Positions 1,906 to 30,707 of a stretch of DNA of 36,593 nucleotides are shown one piece after another; the stretch's first letter is position 1; every line of letters starts with the position of its first letter. The notes below the pieces were generated by a model that saw only the letters and a list, made by a program, of their open reading frames with translations, was not told the DNA's origin and searched no databases. A program made the position numbers and the translations under genes. Source of the stretch: Anaerolineae bacterium (lineage in GTDB: Bacteria; Chloroflexota; Anaerolineae; Anaerolineales; RBG-16-64-43); contig JBGOXY010000002.1 of assembly GCA_041479415.1 (NCBI GenBank), positions 1-36,593 of the forward strand, given 5' to 3'.

Positions 1906-3885
1906 TCAGAATGCCTCCACCCCACCCTCACGGGATGCGGGCCGCGTCGTGGGCAGCGCGGGCAGGCCTCGAGCCAGGGCGATAGTGATTCGCAAGATGT
2001 TTTCGCTAATCGCCTTCATGCGTTCCAGCGGCGCCTCGCCCGGCTCCGCTGCGGCCGCCGGCACACCGCTCTCTTCCGACTGGGCTTCCTTCTCGAGGAT
2101 GTAAAAACGCAACTCGCCCAGCTTGCGCTCCAGCGCCTGTTGTCGCAGGCGCAGGAGACCTCCCAGCACATCATCCGCATCAGCCTCTTCGCCGGCCTGG
2201 AAGCGCTCGAGACTCGCGCGGGCCGCGGCCAGCGCCTCGGGCGCTTCTTGCGCGGCATGCGTTTCGATGAAGATGGCCGGGTCGGTTTCCTCCTGCGAGA
2301 GCGAGCGCTGGATGATCTCCAGCAGCCACTGACTCTCGGAGGTGGTGAGATCCTCTGGCCCGGGCCGCGCCAGCCCCAGTTCACCGAAGATGCGGTTGGC
2401 GCGAAACAGCAGCAGCGGTTGGCGCACAAGCGCTCCCAGGCAGAAGGCCTCGCGGCTGGAGGCCTTGGCCGCCATCCCCGCAGCCGGTGCGGCGGGCGCC
2501 GAGGGTGCCTCGCCGCGGCCGCCGCGCATCGTACTGCGGCGAGCCGGGCGCCGCCCGGGCGCAGCCTGCAACGACGCCAACTCCACTCGCAGCAATCGCG
2601 CCAGTTGCTGGCGATAAGCATCCCGCTCCACCGGGTCGGCGACGTCTTCAATGAGCGGCAGGATGCGCGCCGCGACCTCCGCCTTGACTTTGGCCTCGTT
2701 CAGGTTTCTGCCCTGGGTAATGACTCCCAGCACGTGCTCCACGACCGGCCGCGCCTCGGCAATGCGCTGACGCCAGGCCTCACGGTCTTGCAGGATGAGT
2801 TCATCCGGATCGAGCCCGGCCGGCAAAGTCGCCACGCGCAGGTCGGCTTGCAGCCTTCCTTCGAAACGAACCAATCCGCGCGCATCGAAGACGGGCTCGC
2901 CTTCGCGCTCGAGCGTCTCGCGCGCCAGGTCCAGGCCGCGCAGGGCGGCCGCGTCGCCAGCCGAATCGGCGTCCAATGCCAGGACAATACGTCGCGCATG
3001 GCGCTTGAGCATCCGCAGCTGGGCCTCGGTGAGGGCCGTGCCCATCGGCGAGACCACGTTAAGGAAGCCAGCCTGATGCGCAGTCATCACGTCGAGATAG
3101 CCCTCGACAATGACCGCCTCCTCTTGGGCGCGGATGGCGCGCGCGGCGCGATCCAGCCCGTACAACAGGTGGCCCTTATCGAAGATCGGCGACTGGGGCG
3201 AATTGAGAAACTTGGGCACGTCGTTGGGGTCGACGATACGTGCGCCGAAGCCGCACATCCGCCCGCGATTATCACGGATGGGGATGGTGATGCGGTTGTG
3301 GAAGCGGTCGCGCAGCCCGCCACCCTCGGGCGTGACCACCACCCCGGCCTGCTGGAGATCGTCGTCGGTGTAGCCCTTGCCGCGAAAATAGGACAGGCCG
3401 TGTTCGCGCCCGGCCGGGGCCAGCCCAACCTGGAAGGCTTCCAGGGTCTCGTCCGCGAGACCGCGCCCATGCAGGTAATCCCTCACCGTGGCACCGGCGG
3501 TGGAGGTAAGCAAGTAGTTGCGATAGTAGGTGGCGGCCAGTTCCAAGAGGCCGCGAAGATGTTCGTAGGTTTCCTCCGCCCGCTGCTCATCGGCCGAGCG
3601 CGGATGAAGTTCGATACCGGCGCGCGTCGCAAGCTGGCGCAGCGCCTCGGGGAAATCCCAGCCCTCTTTCTTCATGACGAACTTAAAGAGGTCGCCGCCC
3701 TCGTTGCACGCGCCGAAGCAGCGCCAGGTGCCGCTCTCGGGGAAGACCACAAAGGCCGGGGTGTGAACGTTGGGGTGAAAGGGACAGAACCCGATGTAGT
3801 TCTTGCCGGTGCGCCGCAGTCGGACGCTCTCGCTCACCAGCTCGACGATGTCGAGGCGTGCCTTGATGTCATCAACGGCGGTCAT
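1906..3885 (-). CDS. dnaG: DNA primase
   Basis: CHC2 zinc finger (CPFHPNVHTPAFVVFPESGTWRCFGAC) and a TOPRIM segment (VIVEGYLDVMTAHQAGF ... LALDADSAGDAA). I moved the start from the ORF-track 4008 to the ATG at 3885 (MTAVDDIKARLDIVELV), a typical primase N-terminus. The 41 upstream codons overlap a 17-bp hairpin. Confidence 0.92.
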   Translation of the reverse strand: MTAVDDIKARLDIVELVSESVRLRRTGKNYIGFCPFHPNVHTPAFVVFPESGTWRCFGACNEGGDLFKFVMKKEGWDFPEALRQLATRAGIELHPRSADEQRAEETYEHLRGLLELAATYYRNYLLTSTAGATVRDYLHGRGLADETLEAFQVGLAPAGREHGLSYFRGKGYTDDDLQQAGVVVTPEGGGLRDRFHNRITIPIRDNRGRMCGFGARIVDPNDVPKFLNSPQSPIFDKGHLLYGLDRAARAIRAQEEAVIVEGYLDVMTAHQAGFLNVVSPMGTALTEAQLRMLKRHARRIVLALDADSAGDAAALRGLDLARETLEREGEPVFDARGLVRFEGRLQADLRVATLPAGLDPDELILQDREAWRQRIAEARPVVEHVLGVITQGRNLNEAKVKAEVAARILPLIEDVADPVERDAYRQQLARLLRVELASLQAAPGRRPARRSTMRGGRGEAPSAPAAPAAGMAAKASSREAFCLGALVRQPLLLFRANRIFGELGLARPGPEDLTTSESQWLLEIIQRSLSQEETDPAIFIETHAAQEAPEALAAARASLERFQAGEEADADDVLGGLLRLRQQALERKLGELRFYILEKEAQSEESGVPAAAAEPGEAPLERMKAISENILRITIALARGLPALPTTRPASREGGVEAF

Positions 3886-3970
3886 CAGCTCTCTCTTGGG
3901 TGATGCCCGAGGGATTATACCCGCATCGCCAGCCGTATCGTGCACACCAGCGAATTCCATCTGCGCACGG

Positions 3971-4009
3971 AATGCCAGCGGCGGCGCCTCGTGCGCCGCC
4001 GCTGGCATT
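3971..4009 (-). terminator. Perfect 17-bp hairpin between the NBR1-like gene and dnaG (candidate terminator or insulator)
   Basis: AATGCCAGCGGCGGCGC (3971-3987), loop CTCGT, GCGCCGCCGCTGGCATT (3993-4009). It starts 24 nt downstream of the 4033 stop on the minus strand. No U-tract. Confidence 0.45.
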
Positions 4010-4032
4010 GCTGCTCCACAGCCGAGGCATCT

Positions 4033-4713
4033 TCAGGGAACAAAGATGCTTCCGCGCAGTGGCTTGTCGCCTCGCCCGCCCACGCCGAACTTGCTTCCAT
4101 CCGGCGCCTGCAGCATCCAGTAGCTGGTATGGGTCCCGCCCTCGTAGGGAGCGATCATGATCACGCCGATAAACATGTGATCGCCGGGCGGCACCTCTTT
4201 GGGGAAGGCCACCCAGTTGGCACCGCTCATGTGCTCGCCGCCGTAGAAGACCAGGCGGTAATCCCGAGTCCAGGTGCAGGTGCCGATATTGCGCACGTCC
4301 CACACTTTCTTAAAGGTTTCCGCCACACCCACCGGCGCACCATCGCCCAGACCCACATAGCCGACGAAGTAGGCCGCGTTGCACAGTTGCTCGAGCGGTG
4401 CGGCAGGGTTCGCTCCCGGCGTGCCGTAGGGTGCCCGCGTCAGCGAGTAGGTGGCGGAACCCTGCGGCGTTTCGCTGGGTGCAGTCGCGGAGGCCATTGG
4501 CTCGCTCACCCCGGGCGTCGTCCTCGCCAGCGCAGTGGTTAGCGCGGCCAGTGTGCCTGCCTCCGATTGCGTGGGTGCCGCCGCGGGTGGAGGCGTGGCC
4601 TGCGAAGCCGGCGCGCGCTGCAGTACCCCAGCTAAGTTGCATGCGAGCAGCGCGGCCGCGGCCACGGTCAATGGGAGGAGATTGCGAGTTCGATGATGGA
4701 ATGGCATCGGCAT
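4033..4713 (-). CDS. Secreted lipoprotein with a C-terminal NBR1-like (N_BRCA1_IG / FW-type) Ig domain
   Basis: Lipobox LLAC after a basic N-terminus (MPMPFHHRTRNLLPLTVAAAALLAC). C-terminal motif ETFKKVWDVRNIGTCTW ... YWMLQAPDGSKFG is typical of the NBR1-like domain. Start set at ATG 4713 (GAGG 4 nt upstream); ATG 4707 is an alternative. Confidence 0.72.
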   Translation of the reverse strand: MPMPFHHRTRNLLPLTVAAAALLACNLAGVLQRAPASQATPPPAAAPTQSEAGTLAALTTALARTTPGVSEPMASATAPSETPQGSATYSLTRAPYGTPGANPAAPLEQLCNAAYFVGYVGLGDGAPVGVAETFKKVWDVRNIGTCTWTRDYRLVFYGGEHMSGANWVAFPKEVPPGDHMFIGVIMIAPYEGGTHTSYWMLQAPDGSKFGVGGRGDKPLRGSIFVP

Positions 4714-5097
4714 GAGCCTCGACGCAGCACAAGGTGTGTGTGCGATTATACCCAGCCGCGAGCGACTTCTCGGCGCCGGTTCAGCGCGGCTCGTCTGATA
4801 CACGGGCATGCTGCCCCCTCCATCGTGATCGGCAGGGCCTAATTGGGATATCGCACACGCGTTGCACCCTCACGCGCTACGCCGCGGTATCCGCTGTGGA
4901 ATGGATCATCGCATGCCATGGCCCGCCTCGCTCGTCATCCAACCTTGCCGCGCGCTCTCGCCTTCGGCGGCCTTTCGATCGTGCGCCAGGCGTGGCGGAG
5001 TTTCCTCTGCCGCACGCCACGAGGTCCCTTCGCGGACTCACAGGTAAGGCATGACCACACCGCACGCTCGCACCGGTCATGCCCCGCCGCCCCTCCT

Positions 5098-5136
5098 CCA
5101 AAAGAAATCCCTCCCGCGCTGGTCATCGGGAGGGAT
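5098..5136 (-). terminator. Intrinsic terminator of the second NBR1-like gene
   Basis: ATCCCTCCCG (5107-5116) / CGGGAGGGAT (5127-5136), 10-bp stem. On the minus strand it is followed by TTCTTTTGG. It starts 27 nt after the 5164 stop. Confidence 0.6.
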
Positions 5137-5163
5137 GGAAAGGCAAAGGCTGTGCTCGTTGGC

Positions 5164-5835
5164 TCAGGGGACCACGATCTTCACCGTGAGCGGTGTCAGG
5201 CCGTTATCGCCCACGCCGAACTTGCTGCCGTCGGGCGCCTGCAACATCCAGTAGCCGATGTAGGTGCCCGACTTGGCCGGGGTGATCATCGTCACCGAGA
5301 GGAACAGATGGTCGCCGGGTTCGACGATCTCCGGGAAGCGCGCGGAGTTCGGGCCGTCCATGTGTTTGCCGCCGTTAAAGACCAGGTGGTACTCGCGGCT
5401 CCAGGTGCAGGTGCCGATGTTGCGCACGTCCCATGTCTTGCGGAAGGTTTCGCCGGCGGGGAGCACCGTGCCGTCCTTGAGCCCGATATCGCCGACGAAG
5501 AAGGCTGCGTTGCAGAATGTGGTCAGGGTCGGGTGTACGCCGGGCGTGCCGTAGAAGGCCGGGGTGAAGATGAGCGAGGCCGTGGCACTCGGCAGCAGCG
5601 GCACGGGCAGGGTGGCGGTGGCCGGCGGAAGGGTTGCGGTGGGCGGCGGCAGCGCCACGGTTGCGGTGGAGGTGGCGGCCAGCGCCACCTGAGTGAGCAT
5701 GGCTTGAACCGTTTGCGCAGCCTGAGTGGCCAGCGGCACCTCGGTGACAGCGGGCGCACCCGTGCTGCAGCCGGCCAGGACGAGCGACGCGGCCAGCACA
5801 GTCAACGCCAGGGTGCGCAAGGTGTGGGATGTCAT
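5164..5835 (-). CDS. Secreted lipoprotein with a C-terminal NBR1-like Ig domain (paralog of 4033-4713)
   Basis: MTSHTLRTLALTVLAASLVLAGC lipobox. C-terminal ETFRKTWDVRNIGTCTW ... YWMLQAPDGSKFG. Start set at ATG 5835, preceded by GAGGAGG. Confidence 0.78.
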   Translation of the reverse strand: MTSHTLRTLALTVLAASLVLAGCSTGAPAVTEVPLATQAAQTVQAMLTQVALAATSTATVALPPPTATLPPATATLPVPLLPSATASLIFTPAFYGTPGVHPTLTTFCNAAFFVGDIGLKDGTVLPAGETFRKTWDVRNIGTCTWSREYHLVFNGGKHMDGPNSARFPEIVEPGDHLFLSVTMITPAKSGTYIGYWMLQAPDGSKFGVGDNGLTPLTVKIVVP

Positions 5836-5886
5836 TCGGTCCTCCTCGTGCTTGGGTGTGCGGCGCATGGGCCGTTGCGGCCCGCC

Positions 5887-8391
5887 TCACGCCGCACCGA
5901 GCGCCTCCGGCTCGCCCTCCTGTTGCGGCGAGGGCTCACTCTCGGCCGCCTGAGGCTCGATCATCAGTTTGTCGTCGCGCAGCGCGATGGTCACCGTCTG
6001 ATCGTCGTGGATGCGGCCTTCGAGCATAGCCTCCGAGAGCATATCCTCCACTTCGGTCTGGATGACGCGCCGCAGCGGGCGGGCGCCCATCTCCGGGTTG
6101 TAACCCAGATCCGCCAGGCGTGCCTGGGCCTCGGGCGTCGCGCTCAAGGTGATGTGATGCTCCACCAGGCGCTGTGCCACTTTGGCGATCTCCAGGTTGA
6201 CGATCTGGGTGATGTCGTCCTTATCCAGCGCGCGGAACACGATCACCGCATCGACCCGGTTGAGGAACTCGGGGCGGAAGGCGCGGCGCAGCTCCTCGAG
6301 CAGCTTCTTGCGCATCTCGTCGTAGGGCGCCACCTCGCCGCGGGTCTCATCGCGCTGGATGGCAAAGCCCAGCCCGGCCTGGCGGCGGATGGTCTCGGCG
6401 CCCACGTTGGAGGTCATGACGATCATCGCGTTCTGGAAGTTGACCTTGTGGCCGCGTGCATCCGAGAGGTGCCCCTCTTCCATGATCTGCAGGAGCATGT
6501 TGTGCGCCTCGGGGTGCGCCTTCTCGATCTCGTCGAAGACGACGATCGAATACGGCCTCCGGCGCAGTGCTTCGGTCAGCTGCCCGGCATCGTCGTAGCC
6601 CACGTAGCCCGGGGGCGCGCCGACCAGGCGGCTCACCGTGTGGCGCTCCATGAACTCCGACATGTCGAGCTGCACCAGCGCGTCTTCCGAACCGAACATG
6701 AAGGCGGCCAGGGCTTTGGTGAGTTCGGTCTTGCCCACGCCGGTCGGCCCGAGGAAGATGAACGAGCCGATCGGGCGGCGCGGGTCCTTGAGCCCGGCGC
6801 GCGCCCGGCGCACAGCCTTGGAGATAGCCAGGATGGCTTCATCCTGCCCAATGATGCGCCCGCGCAGCGTTTCTTCCATCTTCATTAGGCGTGCCGACTC
6901 GGCTTCCGCGAGCTGCATCACCGGGATGCCGGTCCACATCGAGACCACTTCGGCGACATCTTCGGGCACCACGCGCGGGCCTTTATCGCGGTCGGCCATG
7001 ACCAGCTGCAGTTCCTGTCGCGACCGCTCCAGCTCGTTCTCCCGGTCCTGGATTTCCTCGGCGGCCTCGTAACGTCCTTCTTCGGCCGCCGTGGCACGTT
7101 CGGCCCGCAGGCGTCGCAGCTCGCCCATGATCTCCTTCAGGCGTTTGGCCTCCGGGCTCTTGTACATGCGCACGCGCGAAGCCGTTTCGTCGATCAGGTC
7201 GATCGCCTTATCCGGCAAAAAGCGATCGGGCACGTAGCGCCCGGAGAGGCGGGCGGCAGCTTCGAGCGCCTCGTCGGTGATCCGCAGGCGGTGGTGGTCC
7301 TCGTAGTTGCGGCGCACGCCGCGCAGGATCTGGATCGATTCCTCCACCGAGGGCTCCTCGACCATCACCGGCTGGAAGCGGCGCTCGAGGGCCGCATCGC
7401 TCTCGATGTGCTTGCGGTATTCGGTGAGGGTGGTCGCGCCGATCACCTGCAGCTCGCCGCGCGAGAGGGCCGGCTTGAGTATGTTGGCCGCATCAACCGA
7501 CGAGCCGGCTGCGCCGGCGCCCACCAGCATGTGGACCTCATCGATGAAGAGAATTGCGCCCGAGGCCTTCAGCTCGTCGATGACGCGCTTCAGGCGTTCC
7601 TCGAATTGGCCGCGGTACATGGTGCCGGCCACCAGCGAACCCACGTCGAGCTGCAAGAGGCGCTTGCCCATGAGCGGCGCGGGCACATCGTTGGTGACAA
7701 TGCGCTGTGCCAGGCCTTCCACGATGGCCGTCTTGCCCACCCCGGGCTCGCCGATGAGGGCCGGGTTGTTCTTGGTGCGGCGGGCGAGGATCTGAATGAC
7801 CCGTTCGATTTCGGTTTCGCGTCCGACGACCGGGTCGAGCTTGTTCTCCTCGGCCAGCGTGGTCAGGTCGGTGGCCAGTTGATCGACCAAGGGTGTCTTG
7901 GCTTTGTCGGCCTTGGCGCCGGCCGCGGCCGGCTGGCGTGCCTGGGCCGGGGCTTCCTGCAGCAGGCGGCGCGTCTGGCGGCGAACCTGTTCCGGGCTGA
8001 CCCCCAGGCGGCGCAACACGTCGATGGCCACGCCCTCCGGCTGGCGCACGATGCCCAGCAACAGGTGTTCGGTGCCGATGTAGTGATGGCCGAGGCGGCG
8101 CGCCTCGTCGATGGCCAGTTGCAGCACCTGTTCCGTATCGGGCGAGAGATCGATGCGTTCGGGGGTGGTGCGACCCGGCACGGATTGGCGCTCGACCATT
8201 TCCTGGACGCGCTCGGGCTCCAATCCCAGCTCGCGCAGCACGCGTCCGGCCACACCGCCTTCCTCGCGGATGAGGCCGAGCAACAGGTGCTCGGTGCCGA
8301 TTGTCGGGTGATGCAGTCGCTCAGCCTCTTGATGGGCTAGGCTGAGAACACGTCGTGCGCGCTGAGTAAAGCGTTCTAAGTTGTCGGCCAC
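5887..8391 (-). CDS. clpC: ATP-dependent Clp protease ATP-binding subunit ClpC (class I AAA+)
   Basis: 834 aa. Duplicated Clp_N repeats at the N-terminus, Walker A motifs GEPGVGKT and GPTGVGKT, and a UVR-like linker between the AAA+ modules. GTG start at 8391 preceded by GGAGAGGAAGG. Confidence 0.92.
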
Positions 8392-8528
8392 GTGGGCCTT
8401 CCTCTCCTGGATTCAGGCTCCACAGCCCGAATCGTTTACCTCGCCAGGGATTCTACCAAATCCGCCTAGGGCAATCCAGAAAGGGCTGGCGACCGCAACA
8501 ACGACTGCACATTGTATTGTCCGCCTTC

Positions 8529-8558
8529 CGTAGGGGCGACCGGCTGGCCGCCCCTACG
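8529..8558. repeat. REP-like GC-rich palindromic hairpin (GTAGGGGCGACC...CGCCCCTAC)
   Basis: CGTAGGGGCG (8529-8538) pairs with CGCCCCTACG (8549-8558). Shares the 12-mer GGGCGACCGGCT (8534-8545) with the reverse complement of 16-27. Confidence 0.5.
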
Positions 8559-8616
8559 ACGGTCGTCGACATGCGCGTTCCGTTCGCAGGCGCGCACCCG
8601 GATTCCGCTGCCTATC

Positions 8617-10359: not shown

Positions 10360-10581
10360 CTAGAACAGCCCGCGAAGCAAGAGCAAGAAGCCGACAATGA
10401 TCAGCGGGATGCCGATGATCGCACCCACCACGGTGATCGTGAGCACCACCCCCACCACCATCAGCACGAAGCCGAGAATCACCGCCACCAGCCGCCCGGT
10501 GAATCCAAGAATCCACGTGAGCAACTGCCAGATGGCCCAGAACGGCCACAGATACCACGCCACACGCTTGCTGCTCGTCAT
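10360..10581 (-). CDS. Small hydrophobic membrane protein, unknown function
   Basis: 73 aa, almost entirely hydrophobic (2-3 predicted TM segments). Start set at ATG 10581, preceded by AAGGAGG with a 5-nt spacer. It lies 45 nt downstream of the PspC-domain gene on the same strand. Confidence 0.6.
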   Translation of the reverse strand: MTSSKRVAWYLWPFWAIWQLLTWILGFTGRLVAVILGFVLMVVGVVLTITVVGAIIGIPLIIVGFLLLLRGLF

Positions 10582-10626
10582 CCTTGCCTCCTTACCCATC
10601 GCCCCACACGGATCCGGCGCCGCGGG

Positions 10627-10824
10627 TCAAGCGCCAGGAATGATGATCCAACACAAGAGGTACATGGCCAGACCGGGCACGCCGCCTGGGATACAGGCCA
10701 CGAGGAACCCCAAGCGGAACCAGGTCGGGCTGATGCCGAAGAATTCGCCCAGGCCGCCGCACACGCCCGCCAGCACCCGACTTGAGCGGGATCGGCGCAA
10801 TGGCCCCCGAGTCGACTCACTCAT
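10627..10824 (-). CDS. PspC-domain membrane protein
   Basis: RRSRSSRVLAGVCGGLGEFFGISPTWFRLGFLV ... LLCWIIIP matches the PspC-domain signature. Start chosen at ATG 10824 (65 aa, GGGGGA upstream); ATGs at 10836 and 10842 are alternatives. The longer ORF-track N-terminus looks non-coding. Confidence 0.72.
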   Translation of the reverse strand: MSESTRGPLRRSRSSRVLAGVCGGLGEFFGISPTWFRLGFLVACIPGGVPGLAMYLLCWIIIPGA

Positions 10825-11018
10825 TCTATCCCCCATGGACATGTGTTCATCCACAGTGGATATACGCAGGTTAGCCACTCGCAGTTGCCCTTTGCATGGG
10901 TGCCCCATGGCCGCCGCTAAGTCCAGGCAATGCATCGGGGAGCTCGTCCGGCGGGTGCTTGCATGCCCACCCATCCCACCGCTGGTTGAGGGAGCTCCTT
11001 CCGTGCCAAGACTGGCAC

Positions 11019-11048
11019 TTGCGTAATTCTTCACAACTATGCTATAGT
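11019..11048 (+). promoter_or_regulatory. Candidate sigma-70-type promoter TTGCGT-18-TATAGT far upstream of the hdr operon
   Basis: TTGCGT (11019-11024), 18-nt spacer, TATAGT (11043-11048), in the only AT-rich patch of the 11035-11431 gap. It would give a leader of about 375 nt. Confidence 0.3.
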
Positions 11049-11431
11049 CTTCACTATCCGGAGAGGGACCTCACAATTCCGCACCACGGCACTTGCCCCC
11101 GACTCTCTCGGAACTCGCGTGGTTGTTATTGAGCCTTTAGGCCAGGGCTCTCCGCCGCAGTTCCTAGCTTGGATGGACGGGGTTTCATGGCCCGAATTGG
11201 CGTGAACCCATGCCGCCGAACGTGCGGCCATCCGGGTGGCTCCCAGCCACCCCAGGTCAACTGTTGCCTGCCTCCGAATCCTCCCGTCTCCATCCGATTT
11301 CCGGCGAACGCCTCCCATGCGTCTGGCTCGGCCATCCCCTTTGAGCGTGTTGGCCCGCCGGCGCGCCCCTCGATCCCGCCCGCTGCTCGTGGCGGGCCAT
11401 CACCAACACCGCGCACAAGGAGGAGCACCGC

Positions 11432-13468
11432 ATGAGTGCCAACCGTAGCGCAGGCATCTCGCCGGGCGAGTACTCGGCCGCGCCTCCAGGCGAGAAGATT
11501 GGTGTGTACATCTGCCACTGCGGCACCAATATCGCCGCCATGGTGGATGTCGCCGAGGTGGCCGAGTACGCCGGGGCTCTGCAGGGAGTGGCCGTCGCGC
11601 GCCACTACACCTACATGTGCTCCGACCCGGGCCAAGCGATGATCCAGGAGGATATTCGCTCGCTCGGCCTGGACCGGGTGGTGGTGGCCTCCTGCTCGCC
11701 GCTCATGCACGAGCCCACCTTCCGTGCGGCGTGCGCCCAGGCCGGCCTCAACCCGTTTCTCTTTCAGATGACCAACATCCGCGAGCACGTCTCGTGGGTG
11801 AGCGACGACCGTACCAGCGCAACGCAGAAGGCGCTGGCGCTGGTGACCGCGGCGGTGCGCCGGGTGTCGTTGCAGCAGCCGCTCGAGACCCGCCAACTGG
11901 GAGTCACCCAGTCGGCGCTGGTGGTGGGCGGCGGTATCGCCGGCATCGAGGCCGCGCTGCGCCTGGCCGATGCCGGCAAGCGAGTTTACCTGGTAGAGCG
12001 GGAGCCGTCGATCGGCGGCCACATGGCCCAGCTCTACAAGACCTTTCCCACCCTCGACTGTGCGGCTTGAATTCTCACACCCAAGATGGTGTCCGTGGGA
12101 CGCCATGAGAACATCACTCTCCTCAGCTACAGTGAGGTGGAAGCTGTATCCGGTTTCGTGGGGTCGTTCCAGGTGCGCGTGCGCCGCAAGGCGCGCCATG
12201 TGAAAGAAGACCTGTGCACCGGCTGCGGCACGTGCGTGCAGAAGTGCCCCTGGCGCAAGATCCCCTCCGAGTTCGACCTGGGCCTGGACACCCGTCCGGC
12301 GATTTACTTCCCCTTTGGCCAGGCCGTGCCGCGCGTGCCGGTCATTGACACCGAGCACTGTGTCTACTTCGCCAAGGGCACGTGCCGCGCCTGCGCCAAG
12401 TTCTGCCCGCGCGAAGCTATCGACTTCGAACAGACCGACCAGCAGCTCGAGCTCGAGGTGGGCACGATCATCCTGGCTACCGGGTTCCAGAACTACGATC
12501 CACACCGCGACACGCGCTTCGGCTACGGGGAACTTCCGGATGTGGTCACGGGGCCGGAGTTTGAACGCCTGGTGAATTCGGGCGGGCCCACCTTGGGGCG
12601 GGTGTTGCGCGCCGACGGCACCCCGCCGAAGAAGGTGGCCCTCATCCATTGTGTGGGCAGCCGCGGCGACGCACACGAATACTGCTCGCGCGTGTGCTGC
12701 ATGTATTCGCTCAAGCTGGCGCACCTGGTCCACGATGCGACCGGGGCCGAGGTGACCGAGTTCTACCGCGATATGCGCACCTTCGGCAAGGACTACGAAT
12801 CGTTCTACCGCCGCGTGGTTGCGGAGGGCATCCATACCTTCCGCTACGAGGGTGATGTGCAGGTGACCCAGGCCGATGGCCACTTGCGGGTGACTGCCAC
12901 CGACGTGTTCACGGGAAAGCCGGCCGAGATCGAAAGCGACATGGTGATCCTGGCCACCGGCCTCGAGCCGCAGGCCGATCAGCGGCAGGTGGCCCGCCGT
13001 TTCGGAGTGAGCCTCAGCCCGGACGGTTTCTTCATGGAGCGCCACCCCAAGCTAGCGCCGGTGGAAACAGCCAGCGACGGCATCTTCCTGGCCGGCACCT
13101 GCCAGGGGCCCAAGGATATCCCCGACAGCGTCGCCCAAGGGGGCGCCGCGGCGGCGGCCGCGCTCTCGCTGATGGATGCAGGCTACGTCTTTCTCGAGCC
13201 CTTCACGGTGCACGTGCTGGCCGAGCGCTGCAGTGGCTGCCGCACCTGCCAGAACCTGTGCCCCTTCGGCGCGATCCAGATGGCCGAGCACGAGGGACGA
13301 ACGGTCTCCACGATTAATGAAGTGCTGTGCAAGGGCTGCGGCACGTGCGCCGCCGCCTGCCCGGCCGGCGCCATATACCAGAACAACTTCTCCAATGATC
13401 AGGTCATCGCCGAAATCCTCGGGGCGCTGTCGATCGACCGCGCCATTCCTCAGGAGGCCTTCCCATGA
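11432..13468 (+). CDS. hdrA: Heterodisulfide reductase subunit A family flavoprotein with predicted selenocysteine at codon 213 (TGA 12068-12070 read through)
   Basis: ORFs 11432-12070 and 12086-13468 share one frame and are separated only by TGA plus 5 sense codons. The joined protein (678 aa) has the full HdrA layout. N-terminal Cys domain: GVYICHCGTNIAAM. FAD fold: ALVVGGGIAGIEAALRLA. Junction: GGHMAQLYKTFPTLDCAA-U-ILTPKMV. Inserted ferredoxin domain: CTGCGTCVQKCP ... CRACAKFCP. C-terminal 2x[4Fe-4S]: CSGCRTCQNLCP, CKGCGTCAAACP. AAGGAGGAG lies upstream of the ATG. Confidence 0.85.
12068..12106 (+). promoter_or_regulatory. UGA(Sec) recoding site with a SECIS-like hairpin
   Basis: TGA at 12068-12070. 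Hairpin ATGGTGTCC (12086-12094), loop GTG, GGACGCCAT (12098-12106): 9 bp including one G-U wobble. The apical loop begins 25 nt after the UGA and starts with GU, consistent with the bacterial SECIS geometry. Confidence 0.62.
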
Positions 13469-16400
13469 ACCGTTCCTCCCCCCGGACGGGCGTCTATGTC
13501 TGCCAGTGTGGGACCAATATCGCCGCGACGGTGGAGGTGCAGCAGGTAGCCGAGTTCGCGCGCGACCTGCCGGGCGTGGTGGCCGCCCGCAGCTACAGCT
13601 ATATGTGCTCCGAGCCCGGCCAGGCGCTGATCAAGCAAGACATCCAGGACCACGGCCTCAACCGCGTAGTGGTGGCCTCCTGCTCGCCGTTGATGCATGA
13701 GCCCACCTTCCGGCGCGCGTGCACCGAGGCCGGCCTCAACCCGTTCTGCATGCAGATGGCCAACATCCGCGAGCATTGTGCCTGGGTCATCGACGACCGC
13801 CAGCAGGCCACCGCCAAGGCCAAGCATCTGGTGGCGGCCGCGGTTCGCCGAGTGGCGCAGCACCGCCCGTTGGAGATGCGCCAGGTGCATGTGGAGCCAG
13901 CCGCGCTAGTGGTCGGTGCGGGCATCGCCGGCATCGAGGCCGCACTGCGCTTGGCGGAGGCCGGCAAGCAGGTCTATCTGGTGGAGCGTGAGCCGTCGAT
14001 CGGCGGCCACATGGCCCAGCTGTACAAGACCTTTCCCACCCTCGACTGTGCGGCTTGAATACTCACACCCAAAATGGTGTCCGTTGGACGCCAAAAGAAC
14101 ATCAAGCTGCTGAGCTACAGCGAAATCGAATCGGTTTCAGGCTATGTGGGCAACTTCGAGGTGCGCGTGCGGCGCAAGCCGCGCTACATCGACGAGAGCA
14201 AGTGCACTGGCTGCGGCAATTGCGCCAGCGTCTGCCCGATCGAGGTGACCAACGTCTTCGACCTGGGGCTGAGCACGCGCCGGGCGGTGTACCGGCACTC
14301 GCCGCAAGCCGTGCCCGGCGCGTATACGATTGAGAAGCGCGGCATCGCCCCATGCCGCAATGCCTGCCCAACGGATCAGCGCGCCCAGGGCTACATCGCC
14401 CTGGTTCGTCAGGGGCGGTTCGCCGATGCCTACTGGGCCATCCGCCGCGAGCATCCCTTCCCCTCGGTGTGCGGACGCGTCTGCAATCATCGCTGCGAAG
14501 ATGCATGCACCCGGGGCAGCTACGACCAACCGGTCAACATCATGGCCCTCAAGCGTTTTGTCGCGGATTGGGCCTTCGACCATCGCGACCAGCTCCCGGC
14601 CCAACGCGCCAAGTCACTCACCGGCACGCCCTTCGCCGCGCACCCCACCGCGAGCGGCAAGAAAATCGCGATCATTGGTGCCGGGCCCGCTGGGCTGACC
14701 ACCGCCCTCGACCTGGTGCGCCTCGGCCACCAGACCACGGTGTTCGATTCGCTGCCGGTGGCCGGCGGCATGATGCGCGTGGGCATCCCGCCCCATCGCA
14801 TGCCGGTGGAACTCCTCGAGTGGGAGATTCAGCAGATCCTGGATGAGGGCGTGCAACTTCGCCTGAACACGTGGGTGGACGACATCCCGGCGCTGCTCGA
14901 CCAGGGCTACCATGCGGTGCTCATCGCCACCGGTGCCCATCAAGCCAAGAAGATTCCCATCCGCAACTCGAACCATCCCGACAACTGGCTCAGCCTGAAC
15001 CTGCTGCGGCGCGTGGCGCAGGGCGAGGCGATCGACCTGCGCGAGCGCAGCGTGATCGTGATGGGCGGCGGTAACGTGGCCCTCGACACGGCGCGCACGG
15101 TGGTGCGCCTGGGGGCCCGCCAAGTGAGCATGGTGTGCCTCGAGCCGCGCGGCGAGATGCCCGGCTTCGCCTGGGAAGTGGAGGTGGCCGAGCAGGAGGG
15201 TATCCATGTCCTGCCCGCGCGAACCTTTAAGGAAGTGGTGGTCAAGGGCAACCGCATCGCCGGGCTGCGCTGCGCCGAGGTTGTCTTCCGTGGCTTCAAG
15301 CGCGGGCGGCCCGATATCAGCGAGATTCCCGGCACCGAGCACGTTGTGCCCGGCGATCTGGTGATCTGGGCCATCGGGCAAGGGCCGGACTTCTCCTTCC
15401 TGCCCGGCGACGGCAGCATCAACACGTGTTATCCGGTGGGTATCCAGACCAACAGCGAGATGATGACCACCACCCCGGGCGTGTTCTGCGCGGGCGATGT
15501 GCGCCGCGGGCAAACCTTCTTTGTGGTCGACGCCATTGGCGAGGGCCACCACGCTGCGCGTTGCATCGACCGTTATCTACGCGGCGAGCAGGGCGTGCGC
15601 GAACCGCATCGGCCGCCGGTGGTGGAACTGCGCCGCGAGGAGATCGAGCACAAAGTGGAGTTGGGCGAAGCCGCGCGCCGTCCGCGCGCGGTCATCCGCA
15701 ACATCGGCGTGGAAGCGCGCCGGCTCAACTTCCGCGAAGTGGATCTCACGCTGACCGAAGCCGAGGCGGTGGCCGAGGCCGAGCGCTGCCTGCGCTGCGG
15801 AATATGCTCCGAGTGTCTGGAGTGCGTCTCGGCCTGCGAGCGAGGGGCGATCAACCACGACATGCAGCCCGAGATCTTGGATCTCAAGGTGGGCACGTTG
15901 GTGCTGGCCACCGGCTTCCGCGATTTCGACCCGCGGGTGGCTCCCGAGCTGGGCCATGGGCGCCTGGCGAATGTGCTGAGCGCCATGGAGTTTGAGCGGC
16001 TGATCAACACCGGCGGCCCGACGCTGGGCAAGGTGCTGCTCGCCAACGGCCAGCCGCCCAAGCGGGTGGCCATCGTGCACTGCGTGGGCAGCCGCGACGA
16101 CCGCTACCACGAGTATTGCTCGCGCGCCTGTTGCATGTACTCGCTCAAGATCGCCCAACTGGCACACGAGTACCTGCAGGCGGAAGTGTTCGAGATCTAC
16201 CGCGACATGCGCTCCTTCGGCAAAGGCTACGAGGAGTTCTACAACCGCACCCGCGCGAGCGGCGTTCACTTCTTCCACGGCCGGGTGCGCGAGGTGACGG
16301 CGGTTGATGGTCACTTGCGCGTGCAGTGGGAAGAGAGTTTCCACAACGAGCCCGACCAGGTGGACGTGGACCTGGTGATTCTCGCCACGGGCATGGAACC

Positions 16401-16887
16401 GCAGGGCGATACGGCACGCATGGCGAAGCTGTTCGGTCTCTCACGCAGCCGGGATGGGTTCTTCCTCGAGCGCCATCCGAAGCTCGCCCCGGTGGAGACC
16501 TCCTCGCAGGGCATCTTCCTGGCCGGAGCCTGCCAGAGTCCCAAAGACATCCCCGACACGGTGGCGCAGGCTGCCGCAGCAGCGGCTGGCGCGCTGGCGC
16601 TTATCGACCAGCACACCATCAGCCTGGATCCCTCCATTGCCGAGGTGGAGGTAGCGCGCTGCCTGGGCTGCGGCCAGTGTGCAGCCGCCTGCCCATATGG
16701 AGCCATTGAACTGGCGCGCGGCAAGGCCGCGGTCAACGCCTACTTGTGCAAGGGCTGCGGCACGTGCGCCGGGGCGTGCCCGAACAAGGCCATGAGCCTC
16801 ATCCATTTCGACGACCGCCAGTTGATTGCCGAACTGGACGGCGCCCTGGCGTGGATCGATGCCGCCGAAGAGGTGGGCCATGTATGA
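13465..16887 (+). CDS. HdrL-type giant HdrA paralog: HdrA with an inserted NfnB/GltD-like NAD(P)H:FAD oxidoreductase module, predicted selenocysteine at codon 198 (TGA 14056-14058)
   Basis: ORFs 13465-14058 and 14074-16887 are in one frame and join to 1140 aa. The N-terminus parallels hdrA (GVYVCQCGTNIAAT ... FPTLDCAA-U-ILTPKMV). After the first ferredoxin half-motif (CTGCGNCASVCP) comes a glutamate-synthase-small-subunit-like block. That block shows CRNACP, CGRVCNHRCEDAC, KKIAIIGAGPAGLTTALDL, VIVMGGGNVALDTA and GVFCAGDV. The HdrA fold then resumes (CLRCGICSECLECVSAC ... LATGF ... CLGCGQCAAACP, CKGCGTCAGACP). ATGA overlap with hdrA; AGGAGG upstream. Confidence 0.85.
14056..14093 (+). promoter_or_regulatory. 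UGA(Sec) recoding site with a SECIS-like hairpin (paralogous copy)
   Basis: TGA at 14056-14058. Hairpin TGGTGTCC (14075-14082), loop GTT, GGACGCCA (14086-14093). Same UGA-to-loop spacing (25 nt) as the first copy. Confidence 0.62.
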
Positions 16888-17368
16888 ACCCAAGGTGATC
16901 GGATTCCTGTGTACCTGGTGCAGCTACACCGGCGCCGACTCGGCCGGCACCTCGCGCCTGAAGACCCCATGGAACCTGCGTGCCGTGCGCGTGCCGTGCT
17001 CCGGGCGCGTGGCGCCGGAGCTCATCCTGCGTGCCTTCGACCAAGGGGCCGACGGCGTGCTGGTGCTCGGCTGCCACATCGGCGAATGCCACTACGACAG
17101 CGGCAACCATCGCGCCGCCAAGCGCATCCCGCTGCTCCTCTCCATCCTGGAGTTTGCCGGGATGCAGCCCGAGCGGCTGCGTTTGGATTGGGTGTCGGCC
17201 TCGGAGGGTGATCGCTACGCGCGGATCGTGAGCGAGTTTGTCGACGCGCTGCGCCCACTCGGGCCAAACACCTGGCGCATCAACGGCGCCGCCCCAAGGG
17301 CCGACGCGGCGATCGGCATGCCGCTGCCGGCGGCGTCGGGGCTGAGCGGAGGCGCGCCATGTCCATAA
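16880..17368 (+). CDS. MvhD / FlxD-like [2Fe-2S] electron-transfer subunit (methyl-viologen-reducing hydrogenase delta family)
   Basis: MYEPKVIGFLCTWCSYTGADSAG ... VRVPCSGRV ... DGVLVLGCHIGECHY is the MvhD signature. Start set at ATG 16880, which overlaps the upstream stop (ATGTATGA). Confidence 0.86.
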   Translation: MYEPKVIGFLCTWCSYTGADSAGTSRLKTPWNLRAVRVPCSGRVAPELILRAFDQGADGVLVLGCHIGECHYDSGNHRAAKRIPLLLSILEFAGMQPERLRLDWVSASEGDRYARIVSEFVDALRPLGPNTWRINGAAPRADAAIGMPLPAASGLSGGAPCP

Positions 17369-18252
17369 GCGAAGCCATGCAATCCGCGGCGCGCGATGTG
17401 CTGGCCTCCGGCCAGGTGCAACGGGTCATCGGCTACGAGACCGGCCCGCACGGCCGCGTTCGCCCGGCGATCATCGACCGGCCGGAGGAGGCCGAGCGCC
17501 TGGTGTGGAGCGCGGACTGCACACATAACCTGACTGTCTACCTGCACCGCGCCTTGACCGGCGAGAACGGCCGTGCCTCGCGCGAGGCCGTGGCTCCGCC
17601 GGCGCGCGTCGCCATCGTCGTCAAGCCGTGCGACAGCCGCGCGATCAACGTGCTGCTCGCCGAGCATCAGTTCTCACGCGAGCAGGTCTTCGCGATCGGC
17701 ATGGCCTGCGAGGGGATGCGCCAGGGCGCGCCGGCCAGTGCGCCGGAGGCGACGTTGCAGGCACGCTGCCTGCGCTGCCGCGAGCGGGTGCCGGTGGTCC
17801 ACGATGTACTGCTCGGCGAGCCGCCGAGCGCGTTGCCAGAGGCGCTGCCGGACGAGGCGCTGGCGCACGTGCGCGACCTGCCGCCGGCCGAGCGGGCCGC
17901 CTTCTGGCTCAGCCAGTTTGACCGGTGCATTCGCTGCTACGCCTGCCGCCAGGCCTGCCCGATGTGCAATTGCCCGACCTGTCTCTTCGAACAAGAGGAT
18001 GCACTGTGGGTGGGCATGCGCATCGCGCCCTCCGAGAAGCGCACCTTCCACTTGGGGCGTGCGCTGCACCTCGCCGGGCGCTGCGTCGGCTGCAACGAGT
18101 GCGAACGCGTGTGCCCGATGGGCATTCCGATTGGGTTGCTCAACCGCCATCTGGCGGAGACCGTCGAGAGCCTGTACGGTCATCGGGCCGGGATGCAGCC
18201 GGTGCTCTCACCGGTGACGGGCATGCTCAGCGCGGAGGAGAGTGCCCCATGA
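17359..18252 (+). CDS. Fe-S subunit, FlxC-like (HydB/AsrA-related, 2x[4Fe-4S] motifs)
   Basis: 297 aa with VKPCDSRAINVLL, CIRCYACRQACPMCNCPTC and CVGCNECERVCP. Size and motifs match FlxC of FlxABCD-type clusters. No CCG motif, so it is not HdrB. Overlaps the mvhD-like gene by 10 nt. Confidence 0.72.
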   Translation: MSISEAMQSAARDVLASGQVQRVIGYETGPHGRVRPAIIDRPEEAERLVWSADCTHNLTVYLHRALTGENGRASREAVAPPARVAIVVKPCDSRAINVLLAEHQFSREQVFAIGMACEGMRQGAPASAPEATLQARCLRCRERVPVVHDVLLGEPPSALPEALPDEALAHVRDLPPAERAAFWLSQFDRCIRCYACRQACPMCNCPTCLFEQEDALWVGMRIAPSEKRTFHLGRALHLAGRCVGCNECERVCPMGIPIGLLNRHLAETVESLYGHRAGMQPVLSPVTGMLSAEESAP

Positions 18253-19247
18253 AGACTCTCTCGCGAGAGAATCTCAACCTCTGGCTGGATGGGCTGGCGG
18301 CGCAGCACGCGCTCATCGCCCCGCACCTCGAGGCGCCGGGCGTGTTCTATCGTCCGGTGCAGCGCGCCCAGGAGATTGCATGGGAGGCAGGCCGCCCGGT
18401 GCTCTCGGCCAAGGAATTCCTCTTTCCCCCCAGCGAACGACTGCTCAAGGTGGAGAAGCGCGGGCCGGACGTCCGTCTGGAGGCCAGCCCTTCCGCCGCG
18501 CCGCAAGTGATCTTTGGCTTGCGCCCGTGCGATGCGCGCGGCATCCGCGTGTTGGACACGGCCTTCGTCGATACACCGCCGATTGACTCCCGGTATGCGA
18601 GCCGCCGTGAGAACACGCTGCTCGTGGGGCTGGCCTGTCGCAGCATGGGCGCCTCCTGCTTCTGTACCGCCGTGGGCCTGGCACCGGATGACCCGCGCGA
18701 CATGGACGTGATGTTCAGCGATCGCGGGGCGACGCTGGCCGTGCAGGCCCTGACTCCGCGCGGCGAGGCGCTCATCGCCAACCTGCCGCTCGTCGAAGAG
18801 CTAGGGGAGGTGGAGCCCGCCTCGCGGCGAGAGGTGGGCGGCCTGCCAACGGCCGAGGCATGGAAAGAGAGTTACAGTGACGCGCGGTGGGCAAAGCACG
18901 GCGAGCGCTGCCTGAGCTGCCGCCTGTGCGCTTACGTCTGCCCCACCTGCCGCTGTTACGACGTACGCGATGAGGCGTTGCCCTCCCCGCCGGGCGAGGC
19001 ACACTTCGAGCGGTTGCGCGCATGGGATAGCTGCATGCGCGAAGGCTACCGGCTCACAGCCGGCGGGCACAACCCGCGCGCGGCTTCAGGCAGCCGCCTG
19101 CGCAACCGGCTGCTGTGCAAGTTCGTCTACTACCCGCATCAGTATGGCCCTGCCGCCTGCACCGGTTGCGGTCGCTGCCTCGACGCATGCCCGGTCAACC
19201 TCGACCTGCTCGAGATCGGCGGCGCGCTTCAGGAGGCTGCCCAATGA
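18249..19247 (+). CDS. Fe-S subunit, FlxB-like (sulfhydrogenase beta / AsrA-like)
   Basis: 332 aa with FGLRPCDARGIRVLD, CFCTAVG, CLSCRLCAYVCPTCRCYD and CTGCGRCLDACPVNLD. Start set at ATG 18249 (ATGA overlap) rather than the ORF-track 17925. Confidence 0.76.
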   Translation: MKTLSRENLNLWLDGLAAQHALIAPHLEAPGVFYRPVQRAQEIAWEAGRPVLSAKEFLFPPSERLLKVEKRGPDVRLEASPSAAPQVIFGLRPCDARGIRVLDTAFVDTPPIDSRYASRRENTLLVGLACRSMGASCFCTAVGLAPDDPRDMDVMFSDRGATLAVQALTPRGEALIANLPLVEELGEVEPASRREVGGLPTAEAWKESYSDARWAKHGERCLSCRLCAYVCPTCRCYDVRDEALPSPPGEAHFERLRAWDSCMREGYRLTAGGHNPRAASGSRLRNRLLCKFVYYPHQYGPAACTGCGRCLDACPVNLDLLEIGGALQEAAQ

Positions 19248-20089
19248 GCACAGCCGACGGCGCCGATCCGATGTATCCACTCCTGGGGCGATTGGTTTCC
19301 AGCCGCGACATGGGGCGCGAGATCAAACTGCTTGGAGTGAAGCTGCTCAATGGAACACAGCCCCGCTTTCCGGCTTACGCGCCGGGTCAGTTCGCCTTCC
19401 TTTCGGCGTTCGGAATCGGCGAGGCGCCCTTCGGGCTGGCCTCCACCACCGAACGAGGCGAAGTGCTCGAGTTCGCCGTGCAGCGCCTGGGGTCCGTGAC
19501 GACCGGCCTGCACGAGCTGGCCGAGGGCGATGCGCTGGGGGTGCGCGGCCCCCTGGGCAACACCTTCCCGATGGAGGCCTTCCAGCACAAGAACCTGCTC
19601 GTGCTCGGCGGCGGCATCGGCGGCGCGCCGTTGCGCCCGGTGATTCACAGCGTACTCGACCACCGCCAGGATTATGGTCAATTGACCATTCTGTGGGCAG
19701 CGCGCCATCCCTCGCTGCTCATATTCCGCGACGAATACGAAAGCTGGCGCGCCGCGCCGCACACCGAACTACACCTGACCGTGGATGAGGCGGATGCCGC
19801 GTGGGATCATCACGTGGGCTTGATGACGGATCTCGTGCGGCAGGTGGCGCCCTCGGCCGCCAACACCGTCGCCATCACCTGTGGGCCGCCGATCATGATC
19901 TATCACGTCGACAAGCTGCTCAGCGAACTCGGCTTCGCGCCCGAGCAGCGCTACGTCACGCTCGAGGCGCGCATGCACTGCGGCCTGGGCAAGTGCGGAC
20001 GATGCAATATGGGCGAGCTCTTGGTGTGCCGCGACGGGCCGGTCTTCTCCATGGCCCAGGTCGGCAATTTCTTGGAGAGTTACTTGTAG
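19244..20089 (+). CDS. FAD/NAD(P)H-binding oxidoreductase with C-terminal [2Fe-2S], FlxA-like (sulfhydrogenase gamma / AsrB / PyrK family)
   Basis: 281 aa. Ferredoxin-reductase-type fold (PGQFAFL, LLVLGGGIGGAPLRP, ITCGPPIM) and a C-terminal CGLGKCGRCNMGELLVC. Start at ATG 19244 (ATGA overlap, AGGAGG at 19231-19236). Confidence 0.84.
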   Translation: MSTADGADPMYPLLGRLVSSRDMGREIKLLGVKLLNGTQPRFPAYAPGQFAFLSAFGIGEAPFGLASTTERGEVLEFAVQRLGSVTTGLHELAEGDALGVRGPLGNTFPMEAFQHKNLLVLGGGIGGAPLRPVIHSVLDHRQDYGQLTILWAARHPSLLIFRDEYESWRAAPHTELHLTVDEADAAWDHHVGLMTDLVRQVAPSAANTVAITCGPPIMIYHVDKLLSELGFAPEQRYVTLEARMHCGLGKCGRCNMGELLVCRDGPVFSMAQVGNFLESYL

Positions 20090-30627: not shown

Positions 30628-30692
30628 AGCGCAGCCCGCCCGTTTCGCGCCACGTTTTTCACTGCCCCGATGACAGCTTCCGATGAGGGCAC

Positions 30693-30701
30693 TGCTATAA
30701 T
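30693..30701 (+). promoter_or_regulatory. Extended -10 promoter TGCTATAAT, apparently producing a leaderless mRNA
   Basis: TGC-TATAAT (30693-30701). Only 6 nt separate the -10 hexamer from the ATG at 30708, and no SD is present in between. Confidence 0.5.
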
Positions 30702-30707
30702 CACGGC

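Follow-up and report, generated by a model that had tools for sequence, protein, structure and literature searches.

A six-gene operon of the heterodisulfide reductase (Hdr)-Flx type was analyzed in a 36.6-kb stretch of DNA (hereafter the window; positions 1 to 36,593 of contig JBGOXY010000002.1, assembly GCA_041479415.1) from an Anaerolineae bacterium. The operon lies on the + strand at 11432-20089 in the order hdrA, hdrL, mvhD/flxD, flxC, flxB, flxA. It pairs two HdrA-type flavoproteins, each with a selenocysteine (Sec) codon, with an Flx-like NAD(P)H module, and it contains no gene for HdrB, HdrC or HdrD. From comparisons of sequence, we tentatively propose that its products would form a self-contained, NADH-consuming transhydrogenase that bifurcates or confurcates electrons in the manner of Nfn, built on an Hdr scaffold with three substrate ports.

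Because the window has a G+C content of 66%, raw lists of open reading frames (ORFs) were noisy and frames were picked by codon-position G+C; third-position G+C (GC3) was 0.77-0.87 in the six operon frames. In-frame TGA codons are present in both hdrA (11432-13468, +; 678 codons) and hdrL (13465-16887, +; 1140 codons), the latter also containing a GltD/NfnB-like insert. These genes are followed by flxD/mvhD (16880-17368, +; 162 aa), encoding a [2Fe-2S] connector protein, and by flxC (17359-18252, +; 297 aa), encoding a shortened relative of FdhB/FrhB whose C-terminal domain holds 2x[4Fe-4S]. The last two genes are flxB (18249-19247, +; 332 aa), for a sulfhydrogenase-beta/AsrA-like iron-sulfur (FeS) protein, and flxA (19244-20089, +; 281 aa), for an FAD/NAD(P)H-binding protein with a C-terminal [2Fe-2S] site and the sulfhydrogenase-gamma/AsrB/PyrK/NfnA fold. 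All five junctions overlap by 4-10 nt with GGAGG ahead of each, which suggests translational coupling and a stoichiometric complex. The original prediction, made from the window alone, had given this gene order with its two Sec codons, an insert of GltD type and an Flx-like module, and had counted two modules for pyridine nucleotides and two HdrA flavins; all of these were recovered from the ORFs, Pfam, and comparative loci. It had also noted the lack of a hydrogenase or formate dehydrogenase catalytic subunit, and none was found in the window when all large coding-like ORFs were searched with Pfam.

A scan of species-representative genomes yielded 80 loci. All but two of these (78/80) came from metagenome-assembled genomes (MAGs) of Anaerolineae or other Chloroflexota, the exceptions being a short contig labeled Desulfobulbia and one "uncultured bacterium". 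FlxB homologs were assigned to Anaerolineales or Chloroflexi wherever named, and the best-matching loci were those of Anaerolineales SMAG_U8225 (96%) and Chloroflexi RBG_16_64_43 (92%). When the six operon proteins were compared by tblastn, the complete order hdrA-hdrL-flxD-flxC-flxB-flxA, designated type I, was found in 38 loci including the window, and most of the remaining loci were type I operons cut by a contig end. Flanks of type I operons differed between lineages: no flanking gene family occurred in more than 10 of 37 loci, and no conserved neighbor gene that could supply the missing acceptor was found in these flanks. The comparison of gene neighborhoods put forward with the original prediction returned an autonomous six-gene unit amid unrelated sequence. 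In three loci (L022, L032, and, at 3150-8560, L076), HdrA/HdrL matches were split over several frames; these are probably frameshift errors of long-read MAG assemblies and not pseudogenes.

No CCG-domain (HdrB/HdrD-type) protein was detected in the window, either by Pfam on all large coding-like ORFs or by a CCG-motif scan. When nine HdrB/HdrD seeds were compared by phmmer with all six-frame window ORFs of at least 50 aa, the sole match was a weak one (6.5e-4) between the HdrC-like part of HdrD and FlxC. CCG genes were absent from the fetched flanks in 35 of the 38 type I loci, with real ones in L012, L027, and L048 only. The predicted absence of HdrB and HdrC from operon and window was thus confirmed and extended to the operon type, and since it is conserved across these 38 loci, it is not an accident of one window. 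Next to its type I operon, L027 (11873-20290) carries hdrC, hdrB, a gene for a fused HdrA of 1518 aa that includes a GltD insert, mvhD, a gene for a 378-aa FeS protein, and a further hdrA; L012 (12720-20840, -) has a comparable Hdr cluster containing hdrD in the corresponding place.

Fused HdrCB proteins (~475 aa) were very abundant in Anaerolineae, 5525 being found at E<=1e-20 among 8000 candidates scored with a profile built from Anaerolineae HdrB and HdrD. The two HdrCB contexts examined (L085, 3110-11446; L086, 2334-11138) are Moorella-type methylene-tetrahydrofolate (THF) reductase operons that encode a fused HdrA of ~1500 aa carrying a GltD insert, together with MvhD, MetV (DUF5981), MetF, and the fused HdrCB. 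Both loci share an upstream cNMP-binding histidine kinase and a response regulator, and in both MvhD is called as fragments of 63-68 aa, which may indicate Sec in that protein. Because the abundant HdrCB belongs, in the two contexts examined, to MetFV-Hdr operons with an HdrA of their own, co-occurrence of HdrB at the genome level is to be expected and would not be diagnostic, and HdrB homologs likely co-occur with type I without being its partner. More informative would be a CCG protein that has no HdrA of its own and regularly accompanies type I.

Two sister architectures, found in other Anaerolineae, carry hdrCB or hdrD inside the operon, and their CCG domains were confirmed by Pfam and phmmer. 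Type II (flxC-flxB-flxA-hdrC-hdrB-hdrA-flxD; L054, L067, L068, and L073) has the canonical Flx-Hdr composition, and its Flx proteins are 45-61% identical to those of the window. Type III reads hdrD-hdrL-flxD-flxC-flxB-flxA in L074 and L078, with hdrC-hdrB-hdrL instead in L071. Type I is set apart from both by five linked differences, namely the pairing of HdrA with HdrL, the missing CCG subunit, Sec with a hairpin at position 197, a changed YRR motif, and a Rex-type operator. In L074 (543-13497), the order hdrD-hdrL-flxD-flxC-flxB-[382-aa unknown]-flxA stands between genes for formate-THF ligase and acetate kinase and a gene for glycine-cleavage H (lipoyl) protein, a context that hints at a link between the HdrD-containing version and a lipoyl protein or C1 metabolism.

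Judged by homology, HdrA is a full-length canonical protein with an N-terminal cluster domain, a thioredoxin-reductase-like FAD domain, an intact inserted ferredoxin domain, and a C-terminal ferredoxin domain; it aligned with 8rvu_a across residues 21-667 (phmmer, 1.8e-212). The inserted ferredoxin domain is the ferredoxin exit in the methanogen Hdr enzyme (PMC9012536). The HdrA-like parts of HdrL matched the same chain in two stretches (7.9e-209), with the homology breaking at residue 291/292 and resuming beyond an insert of ~500 aa. Both proteins matched Pyr_redox_2/FAD plus several Fer4 domains in Pfam, and the best NCBIfam match of HdrA was HdrA2, under cut-off.

The in-frame TGA codons (hdrA, 12068-12070, +; hdrL, 14056-14058, +) both occupy the position of Cys197, the surrounding DCAA-U-ILTPKM being aligned to DCSMC(197)ILAPKM of solved HdrA. 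Among 84 related loci, this codon was TGA in 45/54 HdrA genes (TGC or TGT in 9/54) and in 50/53 HdrL genes (TGC in 3/53). A SECIS-like hairpin begins 19 nt past the first TGA base in each gene, at 12087-12105 (+) in hdrA, where it reads UGGUGUCC-GUG-GGACGCCA, and at 14075-14093 (+) in hdrL; its general form across loci is UGGUGUCC-GUN-GGACGCCA. In HdrA, a mean of 7.85 of the 8 pairs was kept in 41 distinct Sec sequences versus 5.1 in Cys versions, and in HdrL 7.69 of 8 in 45 distinct Sec sequences versus 4.67, with a few pairs altered on both sides. The position is Sec with a hairpin in type I and Cys without one in types II and III. By these comparative signals, both TGA codons are assigned to Sec. 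The selA gene at 31250-32629 (+; SelA, 6e-131), ~11 kb downstream of the operon and outside it, places Sec machinery in this genome; neither selB nor selD was found in the window with Pfam, and ARAGORN reported no tRNA-Sec, or any other tRNA, there. A 188-aa ORF with no Pfam family (30687-31253) overlaps the start side of selA.

In the solved Hdr, the N-terminal [4Fe-4S] cluster of one protomer takes Cys197 of the other as a ligand, so that the dimer is obligate, and tandem HdrA paralogs have been proposed to form heterodimers (PMC9012536). Since the N-terminal cysteine motifs and Sec197 are present in both HdrA and HdrL, chemistry would permit a heterodimer as well as homodimers. The conserved tandem arrangement would favor an HdrA-HdrL heterodimer.

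The insert of HdrL (approximately 14338-15834, +; aa ~292-790) lies within the inserted ferredoxin domain and is GltD/NfnB-like, with predicted FAD and two [4Fe-4S] clusters. It contains Fer4_20 and a complete Pyr_redox_2 (HdrL aa 295-694; Pfam), and its best solved relatives were 9bov_A (1.8e-85), NfnA of NfnABC (9n5u_A), StnC (8oh5_C), and NfnB (4ylf_B, 5jca_L). A structural model of the type III HdrA predicts that such a GltD insert blocks access of ferredoxin and feeds in electrons from NAD(P)H instead (PMC12054007). As a candidate NAD(P)H site, the insert keeps both Rossmann glycine motifs (the FAD motif intact, the second as GGGNVA), and the 2'-phosphate-binding YRR, present in 5/5 solved relatives, is replaced by CLE at the same site. 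The solved NfnB-type modules all read V-x-(V/I/L)-(V/L/I)-YRR-(T/S)-x-x-EMP(A), and HdrL of the window reads VSMVCLEPRGEMPG. When two arginines at the end of beta-2 are lost and a glutamate is gained, the change is classically read as a move away from NADPH. Type I HdrLs are split into a "CLEPRGEMP" and a "VC-RGMRASF" subfamily, and type III HdrLs retain YRR. Three HdrA-type genes stand in a row in L019 (1-8538), L026 (2-8538), and L036, in the order hdrA, a CLEPRGEMP-type hdrL, and a VC-RGMRASF-type hdrL; because both subfamilies occur together in these loci, they are not simply alternatives. In L039, three separate GltD/NfnB-like genes (343-3028, 12164-13405) flank the type I operon, with 29-31% identity to the HdrL insert.

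The four remaining proteins were assigned to the Flx module by domain composition and synteny. FlxD matched FlpD (8e-48; Pfam) and, under cut-off, a VhuD-like model (1.8e-34; NCBIfam), and it is fused to FlxC in 23/37 type I loci. FlxC has two [4Fe-4S] motifs and was colinear in two segments (total 4.8e-24) with FdhB (8rvu_E) of Fdh-Hdr complexes, and from this homology it is a probable adaptor between FlxB and MvhD. The FlxC family is effectively unannotated in databases. FlxB matched Fer4_22 (1e-29; Pfam) and 9nez_B, the beta subunit of P. furiosus sulfhydrogenase I (3e-45), and the NCBIfam models HydB, ShyB, and AsrA followed at e-44 to e-40, all under their cut-offs. FlxA comprises NAD_binding_1 and DHODB_Fe-S_bind (Pfam) and matched the gamma subunit of the same sulfhydrogenase (9nez_C, 1.3e-45), PyrK (1.8e-19), and T. 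maritima NfnA (4ylf_A, 1.3e-13); it also resembles AsrB (NCBIfam). The nucleotide specificity of FlxA was sought in its motifs, and this was abandoned as uninformative: the "AR" after beta-2 is present in both NADPH- and NADH-linked relatives. The Flx-like assignments of the original prediction are supported by the Pfam domains; no NCBIfam model reached its cut-off for any of the six operon proteins, so that an equivalog-level match is missing, and FlxC has only generic Fer4 matches in Pfam and no NCBIfam family. The sulfhydrogenase, FdhB, and MvhD homologies nevertheless support well a predicted electron chain running from FlxA through FlxB, FlxC, and MvhD to the C-terminal ferredoxin domain of an HdrA-type subunit and on to its FAD.

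Upstream of the operon, a palindromic, unstranded Rex-type operator (TTGCGTAATTCTTCACAA; 11019-11036) lies 413 nt from the start of hdrA and has two mismatches to the Rex consensus TTGTGAANNNNTTCACAA (PMC6391272). Of 37 type I loci, 32 had a homologous operator in the 500 nt ahead of hdrA, whereas dinucleotide shuffles gave 1.2 on average and never more than 5. Sites with at most two mismatches occurred in 16 loci versus 0.09 expected, and site density was 2.2 per kb upstream versus 0.04 per kb in downstream sequence. The position ranges from -71 to -452 in other type I loci, the site matrix over loci reads TTGTG(C/A)AAnnnnT(G/T)CACAA, and types II and III are mostly without such an operator. 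No rex gene turned up in the Pfam scan of large coding-like ORFs in the window. The operator is separated from the start codon of hdrA by an unusually long (~395 nt), GC-rich leader (11037-11431, +), in which no Rfam family (scan of the whole window) and no sigma-70 consensus promoter was found; a promoter/terminator scan gave nothing useful, and a possible -10 box, TATAGT, was seen by eye at 11043-11048. The stop codon of a 209-aa ORF (10397-11026) falls inside the operator. This ORF has coding-like composition and no Pfam family, and it is not conserved there in the closely syntenic locus L001.

In the proposed mechanism, the six proteins would make up a soluble flavin/FeS complex with an HdrA-HdrL dimer at its core, each protomer contributing an N-terminal cluster domain and a Sec197 that would complete the N-terminal [4Fe-4S] cluster of its partner. 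One NAD(P)H module would be attached by homologous contacts, passing electrons from FlxA (FAD, 2Fe-2S) along the chain given above. Pyridine nucleotide would be bound at two ports, FlxA and the GltD/NfnB-like module lodged in the domain of HdrL that corresponds to the ferredoxin exit, and ferredoxin at a third, the intact inserted ferredoxin domain of HdrA; the complex would have no thiol/disulfide port. NADH, NADP(H), and ferredoxin would then be coupled by flavin-based bifurcation or confurcation, giving a function like that of Nfn or Stn, a reaction favored as the simplest chemistry for three such ports without a disulfide site. As an enzyme under Rex control should be one that consumes NADH, relief of Rex repression at a high NADH/NAD+ ratio would point to the NADH-consuming direction, for example from NADH and reduced ferredoxin to NADPH. 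The conserved Rex-type operator and the three-port logic together lend this function indirect support.

Several points weigh against this proposal. In the solved Hdr, the high-potential electron leaves via the thioredoxin-reductase-domain cluster to HdrC and HdrB, and the low-potential electron leaves via the N-terminal cluster, which shares Cys197 of the partner, and the inserted ferredoxin domain to ferredoxin (PMC9012536). The GltD module sits in this low-potential (ferredoxin) branch, so that a simple Nfn-like wiring is non-obvious. Nucleotide specificity is ambiguous as well: FlxA has no discriminating motif, HdrL has lost YRR yet retains GXGXXA, the second type I subfamily has C-RG, and among type I loci L045 keeps YRR and L052 is intermediate. 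The operator could alternatively be, from its sequence, the site of a CRP-family regulator, which has the same TGTGA-N6-TCACA core. The linked features of type I may, and probably do, reflect one clade and hence few evolutionary events, not independent co-variation, and the function itself has been deduced wholly by comparing sequences. Finally, the thioredoxin-reductase-domain cluster motif C-x11/12-C-x3-CC is retained in both HdrA and HdrL, and because this cluster leads to HdrC in canonical Hdr, a partner could be missing.

That retained cluster is the starting point of a serious, if somewhat unlikely, alternative in which the complex follows the usual Flx-Hdr logic: NAD(P)H would be oxidized, ferredoxin reduced, and a high-potential acceptor encoded elsewhere (HdrCB, HdrD, a DsrC/TusE-like, lipoyl or other FeS protein) would dock on the cluster. 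Closely related operons of the same class do carry hdrCB or hdrD, fused HdrCB is plentiful in Anaerolineae, L012 and L027 have their hdrD- or hdrB-containing clusters within a few kb, and a Syntrophobacter fumaroxidans flox cluster with two hdrA genes has HdrD adjacent (PMC5947623). CCG genes were missing, however, from the fetched flanks of 35/38 type I loci, and no flanking gene was conserved; the two HdrCB members examined sit in complete MetV-MetF-MvhD operons with their own fused HdrA; and several other characters of type I differ from the CCG-containing types, which argues for a functional shift and not a mere relocation of genes. It is improbable that the enzyme is instead a non-bifurcating NAD(P)H:ferredoxin or NADH:NADP+ oxidoreductase, with the HdrA flavins and clusters serving as wires for electrons that run downhill. 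By homology to GltD, DPD, and sulfhydrogenase, the GltD-like and sulfhydrogenase-gamma-like modules would be plain NAD(P)H ports, and no high-potential site is evident in the operon. In its full-length match, HdrA nonetheless comes about as close to the bifurcating enzyme of methanogens as could be expected of any bacterial protein, both HdrA-type subunits are strongly conserved, and a complex of ~2900 residues with two selenoproteins would be costly for a reaction done by small FNR-type enzymes.

The Sec residues suggest a further explanation, namely that the C-x-x-Sec pair by the FAD of both subunits is a redox-active selenylsulfide that reduces an external disulfide, persulfide or comparable substrate and so replaces HdrB chemically. 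Sec is found in both type I subunits and Cys in the types with hdrB or hdrD, and a Cys-Sec197 selenylsulfide relay has been proposed from cryo-EM density of the M. maripaludis Hdr (PMC13518236). We regard this as very unlikely: Cys197 in solved structures lies buried in the dimer interface, where it is a ligand of the partner cluster (PMC9012536), canonical HdrABC enzymes too can have Sec at position 197, and the Sec/Cys split may simply follow phylogeny. A bolder version of the transhydrogenase, which we hold to be doubtful, would be an unrecognised class of Hdr-scaffold bifurcating enzyme without thiol/disulfide chemistry. Here the two HdrA-type flavins of a single heterodimer would be cross-wired via Sec197-ligated clusters and act in series, first confurcating and then bifurcating, so that NADH, NADPH, and ferredoxin are interconverted, with NAD+ at the remodelled GltD module replacing heterodisulfide. 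Such a series has recently been shown for class II benzoyl-CoA reductase (bioRxiv 10.64898/2026.04.10.717634). Type III, with HdrD, a YRR insert, and no free ferredoxin domain, would fit disulfide-driven reduction of NADP+ by NADH, and one may speculate that type I evolved by swapping the disulfide module for a second, ferredoxin-competent HdrA and a remodelled nucleotide site.

Parts of this architecture have already been described, including HdrL/type III HdrA, Flx-Hdr, and tandem HdrA heterodimers. FlxABCD-HdrABC (Hdr-Flox), the NADH dehydrogenase/heterodisulfide reductase of Desulfovibrio and other anaerobes (Ramos et al. 2015, cited in PMC5947623, PMC7382037), likewise has an NAD(P)H/FAD/2Fe-2S subunit, two FeS subunits, and an MvhD-type connector beside HdrA, and the sizes and domains of the window's Flx subunits match FlxABCD as described, the Desulfovibrio proteins having been compared by description only. 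Unlike that system, the window operon has no HdrB or HdrC, an extra HdrL, Sec in both HdrA-type subunits, and a Rex-type operator. The ~500-aa GltD/NfnB-like insertion into the inserted ferredoxin domain is shared with HdrL of Desulfobacterium autotrophicum (PMC2702500), the HdrA-NfnB fusion of ANME-1 (PMC9012536), and the "type III HdrA" of ANME-1 and Bathyarchaeota (PMC12054007). As in the window, these HdrL/type III HdrA genes have mvhD next and often encode a selenoprotein; HdrL of the present operon type differs in that a canonical HdrA and an Flx module always accompany it, in lacking an HdrBC/D, Fdh or Mvh partner, and in its altered YRR. The nearest described architecture may be the Hdr/Flox cluster of S. 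fumaroxidans (Sfum_1969-1977; PMC5947623), which by its description alone resembles the window in having flox genes, two hdrA genes, and no separate hdrBC, and differs in the adjacent HdrD (Sfum_1969).

Among the bifurcating transhydrogenases (NfnAB/NfnSL, Stn, and NfnABC; PMC6405883, PMC10482914, PMC12018979), NfnB and the NADPH modules of StnC and of NfnA in NfnABC are homologous to the HdrL insert, NfnA shares the PyrK/NfnA fold with FlxA, and the same three substrates (NADH, NADPH, and ferredoxin) are proposed. In contrast to the NfnAB heterodimer, the two modules of the window would not be direct partners, as FlxB, FlxC, MvhD, and two HdrA-type flavoproteins stand between them; YRR is missing, and FlxA is far nearer the sulfhydrogenase gamma subunit than NfnA. 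The MetFV-HdrABC-MvhD system (Moorella type; Chloroflexi, PMC5736913) also occurs in Anaerolineae and also includes MvhD and an HdrA with a GltD-like insert, but it is a separate system, with a fused double HdrA of ~1500 aa, fused HdrCB, MetV/MetF, and no Flx module. In the literature searched, which did not extend to Pereira et al. 2011 and Ramos et al. 2015, no report was found of an hdrA-hdrL-flxDCBA operon in Anaerolineae that lacks HdrBC/D, or of its Rex-type operator, double Sec, or altered nucleotide motif.

The neighboring genes in the window, identified with Pfam, are unrelated to the operon. Upstream are rpoD, dnaG, two N_BRCA1_IG proteins, a Clp ATPase, an alpha-amylase-family gene, and the 209-aa ORF without a family; downstream are an opposite-strand histidine kinase, a VIT-VWA protein, a DUF4153 protein, a two-component pair, selA, an M24 peptidase, and tsaD. 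The N_BRCA1_IG genes (4033-4809, -; 5164-5868, -) encode paralogous proteins with PF16158 ("Ig-like domain from next to BRCA1 gene") and adjoin the gene for the two-ring Clp AAA+ ATPase (5887-8391, -), a pairing unusual for a bacterium.

HdrA-based bifurcation is so far understood only with a disulfide, or in class II benzoyl-CoA reductase with ETF, taking the high-potential electron. If the proposed function is correct, the Hdr scaffold would be usable for pure pyridine-nucleotide/ferredoxin balancing without a disulfide module. The genes of the operon are currently labeled "heterodisulfide reductase subunit A", "sulfhydrogenase subunit beta", and "sulfite reductase", and these labels would wrongly suggest sulfur or hydrogen metabolism; Anaerolineae are not known to reduce sulfate. 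The occurrence of three sister architectures in one class offers a natural comparison for the exchange of acceptor modules. Anaerolineae are abundant, poorly cultured fermenters of digesters, sediments, and soils, and for them the complex, if it works as proposed, would be a candidate central redox-balancing enzyme.

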